A stretch of DNA of 13,889 bases from the NCBI GenBank assembly GCA_964373695.1, contig CAYJVT010000011.1, positions 8,046-21,934 of the forward strand, in the 5' to 3' direction. A program made the translations under genes and the position numbers. Under the pieces are notes generated by a model. It was given only the letters and a program-made list of their open reading frames with translations. It did no database searches and was not told the DNA's origin. Source of the stretch: an uncultured archaeon. Lineage in GTDB: Archaea > Aenigmatarchaeota > Aenigmatarchaeia > GW2011-AR5. Of the stretch, positions 1-11,816 are shown piece by piece; position 1 is the first letter of the stretch, and the number at the start of each line of letters is the position of its first letter.

Positions 1-196
1 CGCCGTCAAAGCTTTCATCTTCCAGTACGGCCGGGAGAACAAGGTATAAGGTCTGGTCCTGGCGGCCGTGATGTTGGCTTTCATTGAGTATGGCGACAAA
101 CACTTCATAATGAAATCCAGGACTCAGAGCTCTCTGGAGCGGTGACTTCACATCGTCGTCATCTGCCTTGGCGATTTCCTTGATGCCGAGGAGCAT
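1..196 (-). CDS. Possible 5' part of a hypothetical gene running off the left edge (MLLGIKEIAKADDDDVKSPLQRALSPGF...)
   Basis: Open frame from ATG at 196 to the window edge with GC-rich third positions. No RBS is visible, no family is recognised, and it abuts the first CRISPR repeat. Confidence 0.3.
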   Translation of the reverse strand, partial: MLLGIKEIAKADDDDVKSPLQRALSPGFHYEVFVAILNESQHHGRQDQTLYLVLPAVLEDESFDG

Positions 197-200
197 GGCT

Positions 201-378
201 CTTGCACGACATCCCACACCAATCTGGGATATGGAACTGGTGGATGGCGAGAGAGCCATCGGGAAGGACAGACCTTGCACGGACATCCCACACCAATCTG
301 AGATATGGAACTCAAGGGGGGAATAGAATATATGGAACCATCTTGCCAAGGGGAGATACTTGCACGACATTCCACACC
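201..378 (+). CRISPR. Degenerate CRISPR mini-array 1: full repeat 201-237, repeat with a 1-nt insertion 274-311, 3' repeat remnant ATATGGAAC 330-338, 5' half repeat 359-378
   Basis: CTTGCACGACATCCCACACCAATCTGGGATATGGAAC at 201-237 is identical to the repeat at 4166-4202. The 36-bp spacer spans 238-273. The second interval (312-358, 47 bp) contains a repeat 3' remnant. Confidence 0.9.
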
Positions 379-381
379 TAA

Positions 382-429
382 TGGCCTCTTCCAAGGCCAC
401 GAGCCGAGGCCAAGGCACTCGGCGAATCC
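382..429 (+). ncRNA. tracrRNA-like two-hairpin element, copy A1 (class alpha)
   Basis: GGCC-TCTTCCAA-GGCC, then GCCGAG-N9-CTCGGC, then GAATCC. Near-identical to 3758-3806. Loop TTCCA is complementary to TGGAA at the repeat 3' end. Confidence 0.7.
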
Positions 430-454
430 TATTACGTCTGCCAATATCCTTTCA

Positions 455-510
455 TGGCGTCTTCCAGCGCCAAGAGTTGAGTCTTCGGAACTCAACAAAT
501 CCCACACCAA
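455..510 (+). ncRNA. tracrRNA-like two-hairpin element, copy A2 (class beta)
   Basis: GGCG-TCTTCCAG-CGCC, then GTTGAG-N9-CTCAAC, then AAATCCCACACCAA. The final ATCCCACACCAA equals repeat nt 11-22. Stem sequences differ from A1 but pairing is preserved. Confidence 0.7.
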
Positions 511-525
511 GTAGTTTGAACAAAG

Positions 526-570
526 AGGCTGTTTCATTCAGCCTGATGGCGTCTCTTCGGTGACGCCGAC
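526..570 (+). other. Two-hairpin element B with similar architecture but a different loop
   Basis: AGGCTG-TTTCATT-CAGCCT (526-544) followed by GGCGTC-N8-GACGCC (548-567), in the 5' region of effector 1. Confidence 0.4.
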
Positions 571-604
571 GAAATAAATGAACGACCAACCACGGAGGAA
601 ATCC

Positions 605-2209
605 ATGAAGCCCGATTATCCGATCCTCAGCATCAAGATTCTTGTCAGCAGGATGGGAAGCGATTCAGACGACTTCTCCTTCCCCGGAAGAAAATCCCTT
701 TCCTTCATTCCGCGAGAAAGATTCGTCTCTTGTCTTTCCCGCATGCAGGAAGAAGTGTCAAGGCACTACAACCGCTGCATGAGGGAGATGTTCATTACAT
801 TCGCCAGTTCCAACAGGCTCCGGCAGTCAGACGTAACCCGGTGCACGAAGCCCGTGACGCCGGTTCTGGGGGCGTACATACGCAATGGCCTCGCCTCGAA
901 ACTGGCTGCAACTTTCCGCAGGCGGGAGATGGCCTTCGCTTCGGCTAGGCTGCCTTCGGCTAACAGCAGCCTTCCCGTCCCGTTCTCCGCGGGATTCTCC
1001 CTAGGCATGACTGACAGGGAAGAGTTTGCAGTCTGTCTGCCACTTCCCTCATCCTTCCTAGGCATGGAAGGGAAGAATATCCAGGTTCCCCTCATCGTCT
1101 CTACGAAGTCCCGCGAGAAGCGAGTCATGAGACAAAGGAGGAAAATGGGCAGCGACTGGCACGGGAAGTCCACGGACGAAGTGGTGATGGGGCTGAAGAG
1201 CGGAAGATACATGTCTTCCTACTGCGAGGTGTTCTGCCGCGACGGCAGGATATGGATAAGCCTCTCCGTGAAGTTGCGGAAGGCCCCATGCCCAGAATGC
1301 AGCAGCGATATGTGGACCGAGACGAAAACGACCAGATGCCTCTCCTGCCACTCGACTGGGAAGGTTGTTAAGGAAGACGAGAAGGGTAGGAAGAGGACGA
1401 TCTGCGAGGGCTGCGGCGAAAGCCATTTCGAGCCTCTCTATCGTTGCGGCAGTTGCGGCTTCAAGATTTACAAGGGCGGCCTTGACGAACTGAGCATTGT
1501 AGGTGATGGTCTCGATCCGGCCGTGACGGGCGGTATCAACTTCGGCGTCGGGAAGTTCGCCTGCTGCGCGACCAACTCGGGAGATGAACACTTCATCATC
1601 GGCGGGTCGGAGATTGTCAACCTCAACACGGAGTTTGCCGGCCGCCGCTGGGAGATGAGCAGGCAGAGCCGTGTCAACAGGGGGGGACGGGGCATTAAAT
1701 ACAAGTTCAGGCCCTACGAATCCATGTCCCGGCGCATGGACGAGAAGCGCAGGACCGTCATAAGGCAGATGGCTGCCGAGATAGTCCTCTTCTTCAGCGA
1801 GCAGCGGGCTTCCACCGTCTTCATGAACAGCATGAGAGGCGTCAAGGACTCCCCTGTTCCCTGGAATTTCTTCCAGATGTTCCAGATAAGGAACGTTCCT
1901 TATGGGGAGTTTATCGCTGCCATCAAGCACGCCCTCGCCAAGGAAGGCATCGCCAGCCTGTTCATTGACGAGAAGCAGTCGGAGGGCGAGAAGGTTGATT
2001 TCTTCGACTTCACTTCCCAGCTCTGCCACAGATGCGGCCATTGGAACAGGCACTTCACCTTCCAGTGGCGCCAGGAGAACGGCTTCCCGCCGTTCAGATG
2101 CAGCAGTTGCGGCAGAGAGTTCGACCCTGATTTCAATGCGGCCAAGCGCGCCTCCATGGGAGCAGATCACATCGCAGCTGTGGAGGGAATCGTGGCTCGC
2201 GACGAGTAA
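605..2209 (+). CDS. Cas12f/Cas14-like (TnpB-family) RNA-guided effector 1, predicted nuclease-dead, 534 aa
   Basis: GGAGG RBS at 594-598 before ATG 605. C-terminal RuvC-like layout: GGINFGVGKFACC (RuvC-I, Asn at the Asp position), STVFMNSM (RuvC-II, Asn at the Glu position), TSQLCHRCGH...CSSCG zinc finger, and DPDFNAA (RuvC-III). Extra 4xCxxC insertion before RuvC-I. Flanked by CRISPR arrays. Confidence 0.85.
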   Translation: MKPDYPILSIKILVSRMGSDSDDFSFPGRKSLSFIPRERFVSCLSRMQEEVSRHYNRCMREMFITFASSNRLRQSDVTRCTKPVTPVLGAYIRNGLASKLAATFRRREMAFASARLPSANSSLPVPFSAGFSLGMTDREEFAVCLPLPSSFLGMEGKNIQVPLIVSTKSREKRVMRQRRKMGSDWHGKSTDEVVMGLKSGRYMSSYCEVFCRDGRIWISLSVKLRKAPCPECSSDMWTETKTTRCLSCHSTGKVVKEDEKGRKRTICEGCGESHFEPLYRCGSCGFKIYKGGLDELSIVGDGLDPAVTGGINFGVGKFACCATNSGDEHFIIGGSEIVNLNTEFAGRRWEMSRQSRVNRGGRGIKYKFRPYESMSRRMDEKRRTVIRQMAAEIVLFFSEQRASTVFMNSMRGVKDSPVPWNFFQMFQIRNVPYGEFIAAIKHALAKEGIASLFIDEKQSEGEKVDFFDFTSQLCHRCGHWNRHFTFQWRQENGFPPFRCSSCGREFDPDFNAAKRASMGADHIAAVEGIVARDE

Positions 2210-2281
2210 ACTGCCACTTCCGCAGGCAAAAGCTGTGCTTTCGGGCATGGCAATTCTATGCGGAACAAACAAGGAGATCCT

Positions 2282-3652
2282 ATGCAAATTCTTCCGAGAT
2301 ACTTCAGGTTCCGTGTCACGGGCCCCGAAGGAATTTTCAGGGCCCTGTCGAAACTCAAGTCCGTGACCGTCAACGCCTTCAACACAGGCGTTGTCAGGCG
2401 TTATCATGGCGAGACACCCTTCCTTCCGGAAGAGCTGTTCGGCAATCCCATGCTGCTCTCGGGCATGAAATCCCAGCTCGCGGAGATGTACGACGATGAT
2501 GCCATCCAGAACGACCGCATCTCGCTTCCGACCCAGGCCTACGACAGGATGAGAGTGAGGTTCGAGTCCAAGCACGGCCTCATGCTAGAAAGGCGAGGCG
2601 ACAGGTACGCGCTCCTGCTCGTCTTCCCTGCCTTTTCGATCATGGAAGGCGACAAGGGAAAACTGGCCGAATTCTCCGGAGAATCTGCCGAACTCTCTGT
2701 AGAGATAAGCGGTTCTGTGAAAAGGCGAGACGGAAAATTCCAACCTGCTTCTCATCTCACAGAAGTCGCCTCGCGCATCATGGATGGCACCTACATCAGC
2801 TGCCGGTGCGAATTCTTCCACCATAGGTATCAGGGGTGGGTACTGAATCTGGTAACGTACAATCAGGGCATCGACTGCCTGGAGTGCGGAGCGGACTCTT
2901 GGGAAGAGGCTGGCGAAGTTGTCGTGTGCATGTCATGCGGCCATTCTTACAGTCAGGAAGTATTCTCCCGGATGATGGCGGAGAACCTGAAGCCTCTGCC
3001 CGATGTCAGCTGCGGCATCATGATAGGGCTTTCGACTCCTCTCATCTTCTCTTCCACCGGCCACGAGAGGCGCAGTGTATTCCCAGGAGAGGCTGAGCAC
3101 ATGAGCGGCGTCATCAGGGCCCGCGTCATGTTGCGCCACAAGGGTAACTGGAGCAGCTGGGAAGAAAGGTGGGAAAAAGCGGAAGCTGGTTACAGAGAAC
3201 GCGCCAGGAGAATCGCGGACGGCTGGCGGCGGGTAGTGTATGAACAGGGCGTGCGCAAGACGCGCGCCTCCTGCATCTGGATGCTGAGACATCCGGGAGA
3301 GTGGAATTACTTCACTTACAACCGGCTGCACTTCTTCGAGCCGTCCGATGTCATGGGAGAGGTAAGCAGTTGGCTGTCTTCCCCTCAACGGAAGCACGTG
3401 ATGGAAGTGAGGTTCATGGACGAGGAGTTTACGGAAAGGCATGAAAAACCTTTCGACCCCAGCATGCTGTTCCGTCTCTGCCACTCCTGCGGCAGGCTGT
3501 ATCCCTCTCTTCCCCATCCGCTGCCCAGAGACAAGCGCGGCCGGTTCCCTCTATTCGAATGCGTCTGCGGAACCAAGACGACGCTCGACGCCAATGCCGC
3601 CAAGAACCTTGCCGGCGGCGAGGAGACGATGGGAAAGATCGCTTCGCTGTAG
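2282..3652 (+). CDS. Cas12f/Cas14-like (TnpB-family) RNA-guided effector 2, predicted nuclease-dead, 456 aa
   Basis: AGGAG RBS at 2272-2276 before ATG 2282. N-terminal RYFRFRV strand, CGIMIGLSTPLIFS (RuvC-I, Met at the Asp position), SCIWMLRH (RuvC-II region without Glu), CHSCG...CVCG zinc finger, and LDANAAKNLA (RuvC-III, canonical DxNAAxNI/L). Extra CLECG...CMSCG ribbon. Confidence 0.85.
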   Translation: MQILPRYFRFRVTGPEGIFRALSKLKSVTVNAFNTGVVRRYHGETPFLPEELFGNPMLLSGMKSQLAEMYDDDAIQNDRISLPTQAYDRMRVRFESKHGLMLERRGDRYALLLVFPAFSIMEGDKGKLAEFSGESAELSVEISGSVKRRDGKFQPASHLTEVASRIMDGTYISCRCEFFHHRYQGWVLNLVTYNQGIDCLECGADSWEEAGEVVVCMSCGHSYSQEVFSRMMAENLKPLPDVSCGIMIGLSTPLIFSSTGHERRSVFPGEAEHMSGVIRARVMLRHKGNWSSWEERWEKAEAGYRERARRIADGWRRVVYEQGVRKTRASCIWMLRHPGEWNYFTYNRLHFFEPSDVMGEVSSWLSSPQRKHVMEVRFMDEEFTERHEKPFDPSMLFRLCHSCGRLYPSLPHPLPRDKRGRFPLFECVCGTKTTLDANAAKNLAGGEETMGKIASL

Positions 3653-3660
3653 AAAAACGG

Positions 3661-3691
3661 AAGGGCGGGCTTGAAAGGGGGCCCGCCCTTT
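3661..3691 (+). terminator. Strong GC hairpin 8 nt after the effector 2 stop: terminator, processing signal or 5' stem of the downstream RNA
   Basis: AAGGGCGGGC (3661-3670) pairs perfectly with GCCCGCCCTT (3681-3690). The U tail is only short, so termination may be leaky. Confidence 0.5.
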
Positions 3692-3693
3692 CA

Positions 3694-3742
3694 TGGCCTC
3701 TTCCAGGGCCATAAGTCGAGCTTACGAGACTCGACAAATCCC
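3694..3742 (+). ncRNA. tracrRNA-like two-hairpin element, copy A3 (class beta)
   Basis: GGCC-TCTTCCAG-GGCC, then GTCGAG-N9-CTCGAC, then AAATCCC. Preceded by CCTTTCA, exactly as A2 is. Confidence 0.72.
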
Positions 3743-3757
3743 TGCTTAATTGTACTC

Positions 3758-3806
3758 TGGCCTCTTCCAGGGCCACGAGCCGAGGCCAAGGCACTCGGCA
3801 AATCTC
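3758..3806 (+). ncRNA. tracrRNA-like two-hairpin element, copy A4 (class alpha)
   Basis: GGCC-TCTTCCAG-GGCC, then GCCGAG-N9-CTCGGC, then AAATCTC. The tail ATCTC is complementary to the GAGAT repeat variant of the adjacent array. Confidence 0.72.
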
Positions 3807-3871
3807 TGACCTACTGACAATGTTCTGCAGGAAATCGAGTGAAATGGTCGAAAATCGTCGAATCCACGGCT
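3807..3871 (+). promoter_or_regulatory. Putative leader of CRISPR array 2
   Basis: Non-coding stretch before the first repeat. It ends CACGGCT, and array 1 is preceded by CATGGCT. Confidence 0.45.
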
Positions 3872-4202
3872 CTTGCACGACATCTCACACCAATCTGAGA
3901 TATGGAACCCGAGCATAAGGAGCCTCAAAGCGCACACCAAGACGCACTTGCACGACATCTCACACCAATCTGAGATATGGAACCGTCGTTCCCACTATCA
4001 GTCCCCACGCACTCAAGCACTTGCACGACATCTCACACCAATCTGAGATATGGAACCGAATCCACGTGCAGACTTGCCATGACCCTCACTAACTTGCACG
4101 ACATCTCACACCAATCTGAGATATGGAACAGACATATTCAATTCGTCTGCTCGACGACCCCGCTACTTGCACGACATCCCACACCAATCTGGGATATGGA
4201 AC
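3872..4202 (+). CRISPR. CRISPR array 2: 5 repeats of 37 bp and 4 spacers (38, 36, 36, 36 bp)
   Basis: Repeats at 3872, 3947, 4020 and 4093 are CTTGCACGACATCTCACACCAATCTGAGATATGGAAC. The repeat at 4166 is the ATCCC/GGGAT variant. All spacers are unique. Orientation is inferred from the GGAAC 3' end, typical of type V-F repeats. Confidence 0.97.
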
Positions 4203-4315
4203 AAGCTTGGCCTCTTAGAGGCTCGTAATTCTCTAAAGGCTGAACTCCGGTAACCGAGAAGCAATCAAGAACGCCTTCCCATGGCGTTCTCCCCTTCCTG
4301 CATAAGGAGAAGAAC

Positions 4316-4474
4316 ATGCGGAAAGCCGTTCCATTCATCATTGCAGTTCTCGTCCCCGTCGGCTGCATCATCGCGATGCAGAACGGCATCCACATCAACG
4401 GCCAGGACGGCCTCTTCTGCTTGTCAGCGTTCCTCCTATGGAAGCTTGTCAGCATGAAAAAGGTAAGAGAATGA
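4316..4474 (+). CDS. Small hypothetical membrane protein, 52 aa (MRKAVPFIIAVLVPVGCIIAM...)
   Basis: AAGGAG RBS at 4304-4309, two hydrophobic segments, and an ATGA stop/start overlap with the next gene. Confidence 0.65.
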   Translation: MRKAVPFIIAVLVPVGCIIAMQNGIHINGQDGLFCLSAFLLWKLVSMKKVRE

Positions 4475-6067: not shown

Positions 6068-6322
6068 ATGGAAAGCATAGAGAGCTGGTGGCGGGTTTTC
6101 AGATACTTGCAGCAACGGCGACCCGGCAGGCCGGATATCGGATGCCCGACAAACAGGCTGATGACGTGTCTGATAACGGGCCGCGTCGGGAAAAAAGCCA
6201 AGGACAGGCTGAAGGCACATATCTTGGTGTGCGAGTCATGCCTGTTCTTGGTGGTGAAGGTCGCCATTTCACGATCCCAATGGGACAAAACTTCCGAAGA
6301 AGAGAAAGCACATGTCAGATGA
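6068..6322 (+). CDS. Stand-alone zf-HC2/ZAS (zinc-binding anti-sigma) domain protein, 84 aa
   Basis: C-x24-H-x3-C-x2-C motif (GCPTNRLMTCLITGRVGKKAKDRLKAHILVCESC). AGGAG upstream. No transmembrane or sensor domain. Confidence 0.65.
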   Translation: MESIESWWRVFRYLQQRRPGRPDIGCPTNRLMTCLITGRVGKKAKDRLKAHILVCESCLFLVVKVAISRSQWDKTSEEEKAHVR

Positions 6323-7022
6323 GAAGGACAGGAGCTTCGCGAGAGGCATCGCGCACCACTTCAACAATGCCCTTCATGGCATCTTGGGGAATCTTCAGCT
6401 TGTCATGAAGCACGAGCTTCCCGAAGAGGCCGCGGAGTCAGTCAGGGTCGCTGATAAATCGGCCACGAGACTTGCCGCTCTTGTCAGGCAGATGCTCGAC
6501 TTCATGAAAGCCGGGGACATCGCGCCGAGAGAGTTCCCCATATCGGGTGTCGGCAGGCTCATGGAAGACGAGTTCAAGAGCTTGGCCGGCCGTATCCAAC
6601 TCATCATCGACCTCCCGGCCGTCGTATTCACAGGAGACGCCGACAAGATCGTACTCATGCTGCGCCTGCTTGTCCAGCGCTCGGTGGAATCGCTGGAAGG
6701 CAGGGAAAACGGTCGGATAGTAGTGAGCGCGTTTCCAACAAGAAAGGAAGTGTCCGGGAAACGCAGGGATTTCCTCGTCTTCAGCGTCACGGACAACGGC
6801 CCGGCCATTCACGAGAACATGCTGGGTCACGTCTTCGAGCCGTTCTTCAACCCGACGGAACCGAACATACCAGGCGACCTGAAACTCGCCACTGTCAGCG
6901 CGATAGCGGCAGCGCACGGAGGATGGGCCGAATGCAATTCGGGCAATGCGGGGGCCATGTTCTCGGTGTACCTGCCGGCGGCAAAGCAAGAACCGGCTAC
7001 ATCGGAGAATCACATCGGCTGA
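6312..7022 (+). CDS. Sensor-less histidine-kinase-like protein (HisKA + HATPase_c), catalytically degenerate, 236 aa
   Basis: H-box GIAHHFNNAL, D-box DNGPAI, F-box FEPFF and terminal AHGG are recognisable. N-box asparagines and the G2 box GxGLG are missing (LMLRLLVQRS; PGDLKLA). Confidence 0.85.
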   Translation: MSDEKDRSFARGIAHHFNNALHGILGNLQLVMKHELPEEAAESVRVADKSATRLAALVRQMLDFMKAGDIAPREFPISGVGRLMEDEFKSLAGRIQLIIDLPAVVFTGDADKIVLMLRLLVQRSVESLEGRENGRIVVSAFPTRKEVSGKRRDFLVFSVTDNGPAIHENMLGHVFEPFFNPTEPNIPGDLKLATVSAIAAAHGGWAECNSGNAGAMFSVYLPAAKQEPATSENHIG

Positions 7023-9084: not shown

Positions 9085-9132
9085 AGAAACCTTATCTTTA
9101 AATAATTGGATATTAATATCATGTTAAGGTGA
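9085..9132 (+). promoter_or_regulatory. Archaeal-style promoter/operator/SD of the TA operon
   Basis: TTTAAATA at 9097-9104 (TATA-like), perfect palindrome GATATTAATATC at 9109-9120 (candidate antitoxin operator), and AGGTGA SD at 9127-9132. Confidence 0.5.
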
Positions 9133-9137
9133 TATTA

Positions 9138-9371
9138 ATGGTGAAGGCAATTGTAGAGCTGAACGAACATGCAAACAGGGTTATCAATGTAGTAAAGGCC
9201 AAGTATGACCTTAAGGATAAGTCTGCCGCGATAAATACTATGGCTCTTCAGTACGAGCAGGAGATTTTAGAGCCCGAATTAAGACCAGAGTTTATCGAGC
9301 GCCTCAAGAAAACAGAGAAAGAGCCCACGAAGAAAGTAAAAGACTTTGCCAGAGAGTTTGATATTGAATGA
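9138..9371 (+). CDS. DUF2683-family antitoxin, 77 aa
   Basis: MVKAIVEL...NVVKAKYDLKDKSAAIN...EILEPELRPEFIERLKK resembles archaeal DUF2683 proteins. It sits directly upstream of, and overlaps (ATGA), a RelE-type toxin. Confidence 0.8.
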   Translation: MVKAIVELNEHANRVINVVKAKYDLKDKSAAINTMALQYEQEILEPELRPEFIERLKKTEKEPTKKVKDFAREFDIE

Positions 9372-9634
9372 GCTATGAGGTTGAAATCAGAGACCATCTA
9401 TACGAGCTCTTCGAGAAAATGAAGAAAAAGGAAAGACAGAAACTAGAAATAATCAACAAAAAAGTCAAAGAAATCAGCGAAGAGCCTTATAGGTACAAGC
9501 CACTCAAGGCTCCGATGCAACATATGCGCCGTGTACATATAGCCGGAAGCTTTGTTCTCATATTCTCTGCAGATGAGAAAAGAAAAACACTTATTTTAGA
9601 AGAATTTACCCATCACGATGAGGCTTACAGGTGA
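9368..9634 (+). CDS. relE: RelE/ParE-superfamily type II toxin (archaeal RelE/YafQ-like mRNA interferase), 88 aa
   Basis: YKPLKAPMQHMRRVHIAGSFVLIF...FTHHDEAY motif pattern, size and basic composition, and TA operon layout. Confidence 0.88.
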   Translation: MSYEVEIRDHLYELFEKMKKKERQKLEIINKKVKEISEEPYRYKPLKAPMQHMRRVHIAGSFVLIFSADEKRKTLILEEFTHHDEAYR

Positions 9635-10061: not shown

Positions 10062-11816
10062 GTGAAAAAGATGGCCAACATTGTCCTGTCAATACTCGCG
10101 GTCACAGGACTTGACGCGATGAGGACAGACGCTTCAGCCCAGACACAATCTGGGATGACTATCACGACAAATTTTCCTGACACGCTCACGACAGGTATAG
10201 AGTTTTTGAGTGTGTATATTCAATCTGGCACAAGCGTATCATGCAGATACTCTTATACCACGGATTCGTACAACTCCATGGACCCCAGGACGACTCTGAA
10301 ATACGGTCCATACATCTGGCTTGTTTCAGGATTCGCCTCCGGCGAGAACACTATCAATGTCGCCTGCATGGACAACAGAGGCAATGAGGGGAAGCTGACA
10401 ATAAGGTTCTTTGTTGGACCGCTACTGTCAACGAATTTCCCCAAAATTATCACGACAACCAAGGCTTTGTTGCACGTGAATGCCACTTCCGGCTTCTCAT
10501 GCAGATACTCCACTGAAACGGACTCCTACGACTCCATGGAGGGTGTAACGTTAACAAACTCTCCATACGTATGGCTCATCACAGGCCTGACGAACGGCGA
10601 GAAGACGGTTTACGTCGCCTGCACGGATGGCAGGGGCAATGAACACAAGCTGACGGTGAGGTTTGTCGTGGACATACCTGGACAGGGAAGTCCAGTCTCT
10701 GGCGCCGGGGGCGGCAGGCAAGTACCTCCTTCGGAGCGCGGAATCATTGTCGCCAAGTTCGATACTGTGTCCCTCAACGGCTCTGTAACTACGGACGAGA
10801 TAAGCTACAAGGTCTTGGTGCCGAGAACTTCGGTTCCACTGAACCAGACATTCCCGATCAGAATCCAGATTCTCGGGGCCGACCGTTTGTTCGAAAGAGG
10901 CAGTCCCAGGAGGATGCTGATTCCCGGCGGGTTGGCCGTGTATGTATACGACGACGCGGGATACATGGCAGCCCCATCAACCATGCGGGTTTACAACTCA
11001 TATACAAAGTCTTACGAAGACATCAGGCCTCCCGAGCCTTTGGAAGAGGCTATTCTGGGGTTCGTGCGTGGAGGGCTGGGACTTTTTCTGGGCGTAGCAT
11101 CGACATTGGTAAACGTGCACGGGTTCGGAATAGCCGCGAATCTCGCGTACCATGCAGGCCAGGCTGCAGGCACGGCTCTTCTTGGAGAGAGCCCAAGGAG
11201 CACAGTTGAAAAGCAGAACCGCCTTCTGGAGATAGAAAGATATCTCGACAAATATGAGATACCGGTCTATTCAACACGGGTTGTGGATACAGGGGGATTT
11301 GAGTTCGAGGTCCCCCTTTCCTTCAGCAGGAGACAGACGTCCGTCTATATAGCAATAGGCCAGGTGATGACATCACGCAAATGGTATGATTCCCGTCTCG
11401 GGCTGGAAACCAAATCATATCCACCCAGGCTTATCATACTGCCCCTGGACAATTTGCGTGACCTGAGTTCCCCGCCGCCTGCAGGTCGTATGGCTGCGAT
11501 AGATGCATCTCCTGACAATGCAGCTTTTTCAGACAACCCGGCGTCTAGTGGCCTGTCCAATTCCCCGAACCCCTTCAACTCCTCGACGCAGATCACCTTC
11601 AAACTGGACGAGGAGCAGGATGTGACACTCGAGATACGTTCCATGACCGGCCAGCTTGTCAGGACGCTCGTCGATTCGAGGATGGAAGCCGGCATCCACG
11701 CCATTCATTGGGACGGAAAAAACGGCGCTGGCGACAACGTGGCATCAGGTATCTATCTGTGCCGGCTGAAGGCTGACAATCGGACAACAATGAGTAAGAT
11801 GACACTGATCCAGTAA
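10062..11816 (+). CDS. Secreted/surface protein with two tandem Ig-like repeats and a C-terminal FlgD_ig/T9SS type A sorting-like domain, 584 aa
   Basis: Signal peptide MKKMANIVLSILAVTGL...ASAQ. C-terminus NSPNPFNSSTQITFKL...G.LVRTLVD....AGIHAIHWDGKN..G..VASGIYLCRL is characteristic of FCB-superphylum secreted proteins. Confidence 0.88.
   Translation: MKKMANIVLSILAVTGLDAMRTDASAQTQSGMTITTNFPDTLTTGIEFLSVYIQSGTSVSCRYSYTTDSYNSMDPRTTLKYGPYIWLVSGFASGENTINVACMDNRGNEGKLTIRFFVGPLLSTNFPKIITTTKALLHVNATSGFSCRYSTETDSYDSMEGVTLTNSPYVWLITGLTNGEKTVYVACTDGRGNEHKLTVRFVVDIPGQGSPVSGAGGGRQVPPSERGIIVAKFDTVSLNGSVTTDEISYKVLVPRTSVPLNQTFPIRIQILGADRLFERGSPRRMLIPGGLAVYVYDDAGYMAAPSTMRVYNSYTKSYEDIRPPEPLEEAILGFVRGGLGLFLGVASTLVNVHGFGIAANLAYHAGQAAGTALLGESPRSTVEKQNRLLEIERYLDKYEIPVYSTRVVDTGGFEFEVPLSFSRRQTSVYIAIGQVMTSRKWYDSRLGLETKSYPPRLIILPLDNLRDLSSPPPAGRMAAIDASPDNAAFSDNPASSGLSNSPNPFNSSTQITFKLDEEQDVTLEIRSMTGQLVRTLVDSRMEAGIHAIHWDGKNGAGDNVASGIYLCRLKADNRTTMSKMTLIQ
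10164..10673 (+). repeat. Tandem intragenic domain duplication of ~83 aa (10164-10418 and 10428-10673)
   Basis: Both copies read TNFP...SCRYS..TDSY.SM......PY.WL..G...GE.T..VAC.D.RGNE.KLT.RF.V. Confidence 0.85.

Follow-up and report, generated by a model that had tools for sequence, protein, structure and literature searches.

Two tandem, strongly diverged genes for Cas12f-family proteins, both of which lack catalytic residues of the RuvC nuclease site, form the core of a CRISPR locus in a metagenome-derived archaeal genome. The locus lies at positions 201-4202 of a 13,889-nucleotide stretch of DNA, referred to here as the window, which is C11:8046-21934 (contig C11) of assembly G000 (60 contigs, 1.02 Mb, 91% complete). 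Unless a contig is named, positions are those of the window. Alongside the two genes, the locus contains a CRISPR array and four 47-nt elements that resemble trans-activating CRISPR RNAs (tracrRNAs), and one spacer of the array perfectly matches a zinc-finger gene of the same genome. On balance, the locus is likely to be a nuclease-dead derivative of a Cas14a-type (V-F1) system, an RNA-guided binder or repressor in which the two diverged paralogs would act as a heterodimer and silence a host gene. Classification places the locus within type V-F, as a variant and not as a type of its own.

The upstream gene encodes paralog 1, P0001 (578..2209, plus strand; 543 aa), whose likely start is the ATG at 605, preceded by GGAGG and giving the 534-aa gene call found in other assemblies. 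The downstream gene encodes paralog 2, P0002 (2258..3652, plus strand; 464 aa), which is called in the database from the ATG at 2282 as a protein of 456 aa. Both were recognised as open reading frames (ORFs) with homology to Cas12f; they stand in tandem and in the same orientation, 48 bp apart, and their products align as full-length paralogs at 23% identity (BLASTP, E 5e-10). The Pfam domain Cas12f1-like_TNB is present in both (9e-10 in P0001, 2.4e-4 in P0002). P0001 further matches the PADLOC models for Cas12f (1.5e-46) and Cas14a (3.6e-29) and the solved structure of Un1Cas12f1 in the PDB (7l48/7c7l, 4e-29). An AlphaFold (AF2) model of P0002, with a pLDDT (predicted local distance difference test) of 82.7, has Un1Cas12f1 as its top structural match in Foldseek (7c7l_A, 1.7e-17), and all of its top hits are Cas12f. 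The earlier note, made without database searches, had proposed an operon of two nuclease-dead TnpB/Cas12f-family genes; the gene pair is borne out, and the sequence and structure comparisons above place both proteins inside the Cas12f family.

Both paralogs retain the zinc-binding (zinc-ribbon) cysteines and the full Cas12f architecture. A zinc-ribbon insertion before RuvC-I (motif PC-x-x-C-x4-W) is common to P0001, P0002, the active relative P0009 and P0103, the one ortholog that P0002 has among 5.8 billion clustered proteins (40% identity). An exhaustive phmmer search of 1.84 billion representatives with P0001 returns 121 hits, and the best two relatives, which were looked up, both lie in canonical cas1-cas2-cas4-cas12f-tracr-array loci. 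On the opposite strand, a 505-codon ORF (1058-2575, minus strand) overlaps the two cas12f paralogs in antisense; most likely it arises from the GC-rich coding sequence and is no gene.

The RuvC triad of Un1Cas12f1 consists of D326, E422 and D510 (PMC8053092). In the HMMER alignment, these positions are occupied in P0001 by N321, N417 and D518. P0002 has a methionine in the D326 column, its E422 column is broken by a 4-residue insertion, and D444 stands at D510; P0103 has a leucine in the D326 column and the same insertion at E422 as P0002. The RuvC-I aspartate and the RuvC-II glutamate are missing in both P0001 and P0002, and D/E/D is kept in all 25 other aligned relatives, fragments included. 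With two of the three RuvC carboxylates lost in both paralogs, neither should cut DNA, in agreement with the earlier note. After the insertion comes an acidic residue, glutamate in P0002 and aspartate in P0103, which might take the place of E422; even so, the site of P0002 and P0103 would be incomplete, the RuvC-I aspartate being gone. Since the dead motifs are common to P0002 and P0103 at 40% identity, the inactive state is old and maintained and not a recent lesion.

The four tracrRNA-like elements, all on the plus strand and recognised by their fold, flank the gene pair, with A1 (382..428) and A2 (455..501) upstream and A3 (3694..3740) and A4 (3758..3804) downstream. They fold alike (z -3.1 to -3.5): a 6-bp hairpin is joined by a 3-nt linker to a second hairpin, after which comes the tail AAAUCYC. 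The loop of the first hairpin, UCUUCCA(A/G), is invariant, and all 12 pairs hold in all four elements, three of them through compensatory double changes. A1 and A4 are identical at 45 of 47 positions, and the elements comprise three sequence variants (A1/A4, A2 and A3). A4 ends in AAAUCUC, a tail that could pair with the UGAGAU arm of the repeats next to it, and the tail of A2 continues into ATCCCACACCAA, which equals nt 11-22 of the repeat.

The tracrRNA regions of two canonical relatives (L020 and L019) show the same layout: their first hairpin has 6 bp and closes a loop of 7 nt, 4 nt link it to a second stem that is longer than here, and the tail is single-stranded. In L020 the first-hairpin loop UUUCAA complements the repeat end UUGAAA, and at the present locus UUCCA complements UGGAA; the loop thus covaries with the repeat end across systems. 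The L020 tail is also complementary to the middle of the L020 repeat, and co-folding of the A elements with the last 17 nt of their repeat pairs the tail AAUCYC with GRGAU. In the Un1Cas12f1 tracrRNA, the loop of the 5-bp Stem 3 forms anti-repeat:repeat duplex 1 and positions the guide, and the long Stem 4 sits between the two protein copies; the CRISPR RNA (crRNA) retains only 17 nt of the repeat, and single guide RNAs shortened below half their length are still active (PMC8053092). Judged from sequence, the A elements are best read as miniaturised V-F1 tracrRNA Stem 3/Stem 4 cores. An Rfam scan of window 1-4400 yielded nothing meaningful. Other hairpins can be read in the same region: a GC-rich hairpin followed by TTTCA lies directly 3' of the stop codon of paralog 2 (3664..3689, plus strand), and two more stand between A2 and the first gene (AGGCTG..CAGCCT at 525-543 and GGCGTC..GACGCC at 547-566), the second of which resembles hairpin 1 of A2 and has the loop TCTTCGG.

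The main CRISPR array (3872..4202, plus strand) adjoins the effectors on their own strand and is the genome's only assembled array. It consists of five 37-nt repeats (starting at 3872, 3947, 4020, 4093 and 4166) and four unique spacers of 36-38 nt (D1-D4). The repeat spacing of 73-75 nt is the same as in L020, which also has 37-nt repeats. Each repeat carries an internal hairpin, AUCUCA/UGAGAU, which in two copies reads AUCCCA/UGGGAU, a compensated change; the five downstream repeats are all identical or compensated in this way. The 5' arm of the hairpin resembles the A-element tail. Outside this locus the repeat does not occur in the genome, and it was not found in 43 genomes of the family or in the metagenome and genome contigs searched. 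Right after the last repeat, at 4203-4240, a sequence resembling the first A-element hairpin occurs, TGGCCTCTTAGAGGCT; it may be a degenerate fifth A element or a terminator, and would double as the 'guide' of the last crRNA.

The earlier note had described the genes as bracketed by arrays with the same 37-bp repeat. This description holds downstream, where five repeats separate unique spacers; the upstream 'array' has decayed to a remnant in which a single full spacer is left, the second repeat is degenerate and two repeat fragments follow. On the plus strand, the remnant comprises a first repeat of the CCC/GGG variant that is identical to the last downstream repeat (201..237), the 36-nt spacer U1 (238..273), a degenerate 38-nt second repeat with a 1-nt insertion and a mismatched internal stem (274..311), and a further decayed segment (312..378) that retains a repeat tail of 9 nt (330-338) and a repeat head of 20 nt (359-378). 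Within this segment, the AT-rich sequence at 322-336 is a possible archaeal TATA box.

Spacer D1 (3909..3946, plus strand), the first after A4 on the tracr side of the array, matches 38 of 38 nt at C3:33740-33777 (minus strand), on another contig of its own genome. In the anchored search, the 5' flank of this target is TCGTTT, as against TGGAAC at the array itself. The target lies 63 nt inside a gene for a 68-aa C2H2 zinc-finger protein (C3:33637-33840, minus strand; L003:7638-7841), which neighbours the RFC large subunit gene and the uL13/uS9 genes and is single-copy in 33 of the 43 genomes of the family. Flank and protospacer together (44 nt) are identical in a same-genus genome without the locus. 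The TTT of the flank fits a T-rich protospacer-adjacent motif (PAM), by analogy with Cas12f. D1 has the sequence of the coding strand, and its crRNA would pair with the template strand, the arrangement in which DNase-dead Cas12a gives the strongest repression (PMC5460296). A cutting system with D1 would attack its own chromosome, whereas a dead system would repress, so the self-match fits silencing over cleavage. Silencing or gene regulation was among the roles suggested for the locus earlier, and a perfect self-targeting spacer with a putative T-rich PAM is consistent with it. The zinc-finger protein also has a conserved C-terminal motif, SKIGSGFKGKNRV(I/V)IS. For spacers D2-D4, for U1 and for the post-array segment, searches of their own genome gave no match, even with anchored 20-nt seeds, and neither did INPHARED phages; for D2-D4, IMG/VR likewise gave none.

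The system has almost no close relatives in the collections searched. In a word-indexed protein search, P0002 finds only itself and P0001 finds no match; a profile of P0002 and P0103 finds no third member, and scans of JGI metagenome contigs and GTDB genome contigs contain no member of the P0002 family. Among 371 genomes of the phylum, P0002 homologs are absent save for one marginal Cas12f-type match. Five small gene calls downstream of P0103 resemble an array, as judged from the gene calls. The same repeat and two-gene pair, which the earlier note had proposed to look for elsewhere, are absent from the genomes and metagenomes scanned. Sequencing runs ERR4904391 and ERR3478686 contain the cassette, and an identical copy is found in an independent Logan assembly of another sequencing run, where a contig (L034) is 100% identical to window 625-3901, which rules out an assembly artefact.

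That the system stands alone among more than 5 billion proteins, and likewise in the contig sets from metagenomes and genomes, could also mark a decaying V-F locus, in which an accidental self-spacer made an active Cas12f toxic, inactivation was selected, and the paralogs and RNAs became functionless. The clearly degenerate upstream array, the absence of adaptation genes in cis and the self-matching spacer at the tracr-side end of the array would all agree with such a course. It is nevertheless improbable, given that neither ORF is interrupted over its 543 or 464 codons and no zinc-ribbon cysteine is lost, that the P0002 model is confident (pLDDT 82.7), that compensatory changes have preserved the fold of all four RNA elements, and that the five downstream repeats are identical or compensated. 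The order of events implied by decay is also contradicted by the dead motifs of P0002 and P0103, which at 40% identity indicate that inactivation long predates a spacer that is still identical to its target at 38 of 38 positions.

Complex prediction for P0001 (residues 10-543) with P0002 gives a score of 0.71 in three of three runs, and the highest of three controls reaches 0.00. The runs share at least 63% of their contacts, and the pLDDT of the partners is at least 77. The mark applied to this score is reached by 58 of 80 solved complexes and by 2 of 110 mismatched pairs, and is a rough guide here, where custom alignments were used. The predicted interface joins residues 61-77/120-129 of P0001 with residues 35-49/83-98 of P0002, and H63, Y64, M68 and L125 of P0001 align with the Un1Cas12f1 dimer residues Y121, Y122, I126 and L182. 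These models suggest that P0001 and P0002 probably form a heterodimer via the known Cas12f REC1 dimer interface.

Residues of the symmetric REC1 interface are retained in both paralogs, which would equally allow each to pair with itself. The locus would then encode two independent homodimeric dead effectors, each with its own tracrRNA variants, that share one repeat type. P0103 seemingly has no P0001-like neighbour, and the three A-element variants and two repeat variants could be divided between two such effectors. Set against this are the position of the genes, 48 bp apart in one orientation with a single repeat family, and the heteromeric model (0.71 versus 0.00 for controls); moreover, at 23% identity it is hard to see how two fully redundant dead binders sharing one repeat would both be maintained. 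There is thus little to recommend separate homodimers as the explanation.

For a heterodimeric silencing complex, the following mechanism can be proposed. It starts from computed results (the family assignment, the dead active sites, the RNA structures and the self-match) and infers the heterodimer, the way in which the RNAs pair, expression and repression. A single cas12f gene would have become two tandem, co-oriented, strongly diverged paralogs, and P0001 and P0002 would form the asymmetric Cas12f dimer as a heterodimer, with the REC1 helical interface as in the homodimer. If the locus is expressed, the guide RNA would consist of a crRNA (the spacer, preceded by the 3' portion of the 37-nt repeat) and one of the four 47-nt mini-tracrRNAs. 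The first-hairpin loop UUCCA would pair with the repeat end UGGAA and the tail AAAUCYC with GRGAU, corresponding to anti-repeat:repeat duplexes 1 and 2 of Un1Cas12f1. The complex would bind double-stranded DNA (dsDNA) beside a 5' T-rich PAM and remain bound; with D1, it would sit on the template strand 63 nt inside the zinc-finger gene and block elongation like engineered dCas12a. The remaining spacers would presumably silence mobile elements, and new spacers, if any, would come from the cas1-cas2-cas4 genes of a second V-F system on another contig. A more specific version can be put forward only tentatively: an obligate heterodimeric dead Cas12f, with dimer roles split after duplication between a PAM/heteroduplex reader and a scaffold and with a tracrRNA of ~47 nt, that regulates the host zinc-finger gene for the archaeon or for a resident element.

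Several observations weigh against this proposal. Only one of the five spacers has a match, self-targeting spacers are often accidental, and the D1 target and the locus lie on separate contigs of a metagenome bin; both of these contigs are syntenic with same-genus genomes. The A element:repeat duplexes are only 5-6 bp long, with energies (last 17 nt of the repeat) no better than those of shuffled controls, so the case for tracrRNAs rests on positional and layout homology. Of the four structured elements complementary to the repeat end that the earlier note described, the structures stand, as covarying folds, and the complementarity is confined to these short duplexes. The complex prediction may recall the solved Cas12f homodimers; as these are already solved, the heterodimer score shows likeness and is no proof of binding.

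The relatives of the two proteins raise further points of this kind. No ortholog of P0001 was found in the searches described above, so selection on P0001 is unmeasurable. The contig of P0103, 8.1 kb long and from run SRR22388346, extends only 1431 bp upstream of P0103, and a P0001-like gene call is absent there; P0002-type proteins may thus be able to work without a P0001 partner, and the missing partner gene directly upstream of P0103 speaks against an obligate two-protein complex. A tree of 27 Cas12f proteins, the phylogeny that had been suggested earlier, has long branches for P0001 and for P0002 with P0103 and leaves the paralogs unplaced; given these branches, neither a single origin nor separate origins of P0001 and P0002 can be claimed.

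The host looks like a DPANN-type archaeon with a genome of ~1 Mb. The genome contains an archaeal small-subunit (SSU) rRNA match, the RFC large subunit and an archaeal uS9, and DPANN-type archaea are the group in which Cas14 was first found (PMC8053092). The archaeal SSU rRNA model matches contig C12:16799-22150 in three pieces (16799-17937, 18688-18800 and 21925-22150), which suggests that the 16S gene is interrupted by large insertions or introns, or else that the copy is in fragments or duplicated.

Pfam searches find no cas1, cas2 or cas4 in the window or in the 8 kb upstream (C11:1-8300). The earlier note's statement that the window lacks these genes is therefore correct. Elsewhere in the genome they do occur: contig C13:1-3153 (L025:2-3153, minus strand) carries a second V-F locus with cas1 (2137-3153), cas2 (1836-2132) and cas4 (1249-1932). 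The Cas14b-like effector of this locus is present as its first 421 aa (PADLOC 1.4e-42), the rest being cut by the contig end, and its array is not assembled. This is a second, probably canonical V-F system, which could supply spacers in trans.

Both C11:384-3223 and the window from ~9100 onward are syntenic with same-genus genomes, and the ~14 kb between them (about C11:3300-17150, or the window to ~9100), which carry the locus, are absent from the two same-genus genomes. The GC (guanine plus cytosine) content of this stretch is 0.54-0.58 versus ~0.49 for the genome, and it looks like an acquired island. Its content is mostly small ORFs without a Pfam match, plus a HisKA/HATPase protein (6312-7022). 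Beyond its right border, in an AT-rich stretch, lies a ParE/YafQ-like toxin ORF (9368-9634), and a small ORF that overlaps the start of this ORF (9129-9371) could be its antitoxin. Upstream of the island, at L004:883-2892 (on C11), is a gene for a 669-aa HerA/CedD-like DNA-translocating ATPase with a C-terminal winged-helix (F-93/Lrs14-like), which is conserved in a same-genus genome at 76% DNA identity. Farther downstream, at 10062-11816, a 584-aa protein of this archaeal genome ends in a FlgD_ig / Por_Secre_tail domain of the type IX secretion system (T9SS) sorting kind, which is typically found in Bacteroidota.

The island raises the possibility that the locus is a mobile element's weapon, an integrated element that silences the host zinc-finger gene and rival elements; the mechanism would be unchanged and only the beneficiary would differ. 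The absence of about C11:3300-17150 from two same-genus genomes in which both flanks are present, the deviating GC content (0.54-0.58 against ~0.49), the HerA/CedD-like ATPase and ParE/YafQ-like toxin near the borders, and the precedent of the huge-phage 'dCas14' (PMC7162821) would fit such an element. An integrase, a tRNA gene and a flanking direct (att-like) repeat were, however, looked for at the island and not found, and the same-genus genomes used for comparison are only 76-81% complete. A weapon of this kind is therefore considered rather unlikely, although it has some appeal.

Un1Cas12f1/Cas14a.1 (V-F1; PDB 7L48, 7C7L; PMC8053092) is the closest solved relative of both proteins. The two systems share 37-nt repeats, spacers of ~36 nt, a DPANN-type archaeal host and aligned dimer interface residues, and the 5' flank of D1's target, the only target known here, is T-rich as well. 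By their layout, the A elements would also correspond to its tracrRNA core, in which a short hairpin pairs through its loop with the end of the repeat and is followed by a second stem and an anti-repeat tail. Whereas Un1Cas12f1 is encoded by one gene whose product forms a homodimer, the present locus has two diverged genes that have both lost the RuvC-I aspartate and the RuvC-II glutamate. It further differs in its tracrRNA-like RNA of ~47 nt in four copies, in a repeat with its own internal hairpin, in the absence of cas1/cas2/cas4 from the locus, and in the extra zinc ribbons between the WED-like region and RuvC-I, which are also present in the active relative P0009.

Among natural systems, the huge-phage 'dCas14' provides a precedent for the loss of a catalytic residue together with a spacer against a host chromosomal gene, which its authors read as repression (Al-Shayeb et al. 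2020; PMC7162821). It is a single effector, phage-borne and directed at a bacterial host, whereas here two paralogs with two residues lost in each lie on an archaeal chromosome island. The dCas12f-sigmaE systems (PDB 9N9C/9N9M) also use a naturally nuclease-dead Cas12f homolog, which a guide RNA directs to DNA, and the P0002 model matches 9n9c at 3.2e-09. They occur in Bacteroidota, are coupled to rpoE, activate transcription and are array-free, with one or few stand-alone guide RNAs of 85-105 nt (PMC13472631). Assignment to this group is ruled out by the absence of a sigma-factor domain in neighbouring ORFs, the archaeal host, the true array and the two effectors.

TldR proteins, likewise RuvC-inactivated members of the TnpB/Cas12 lineage, are RNA-guided repressors of host genes (PMC10705468, PMC13622181). 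They descend directly from TnpB and use an omega-RNA-like guide with a fixed target, from a single gene and with no array or tracrRNA; the array and the Cas14a-type (CRISPR-associated) closest relatives, as opposed to TnpB, rule them out here. Cas12m (V-M) and Cas12k (V-K CRISPR-associated transposons, CAST) are type V proteins that bind dsDNA without cutting it, but they are single effectors from different Cas12 branches. P0001 matches Cas12m at an E value of only 0.81, and a Cas12k CAST is ruled out by the absence of Tn7-like tnsB/tnsC/tniQ Pfam domains from the window and the 8 kb upstream. All of these characterised natural dead relatives (dCas12f-sigmaE, TldR, Cas12m and Cas12k) are single-effector systems. 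Full-text literature searches found no natural Cas12f heterodimer and no two-gene Cas12f; the architecture thus appears undescribed, as the earlier note held, within the bounds of a V-F variant for which the huge-phage 'dCas14' is a partial precedent.

Among CRISPR effectors in wide use, Cas12f is the smallest; it acts as an asymmetric homodimer, and PAM reading and cutting fall to only one of its two subunits. If the heterodimeric reading is true, dimer roles placed on separate genes would reveal which parts of each subunit are dispensable and would provide a template for engineering smaller or orthogonal heterodimeric binders. The 47-nt tracrRNA core and the hairpin-bearing repeat are predicted to form a natural minimal guide scaffold. 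Gene regulation in DPANN archaea is, to our knowledge, almost uncharted, and a perfect host-gene spacer in a system that should not cut offers a directly testable case of CRISPR-based regulation in these organisms.

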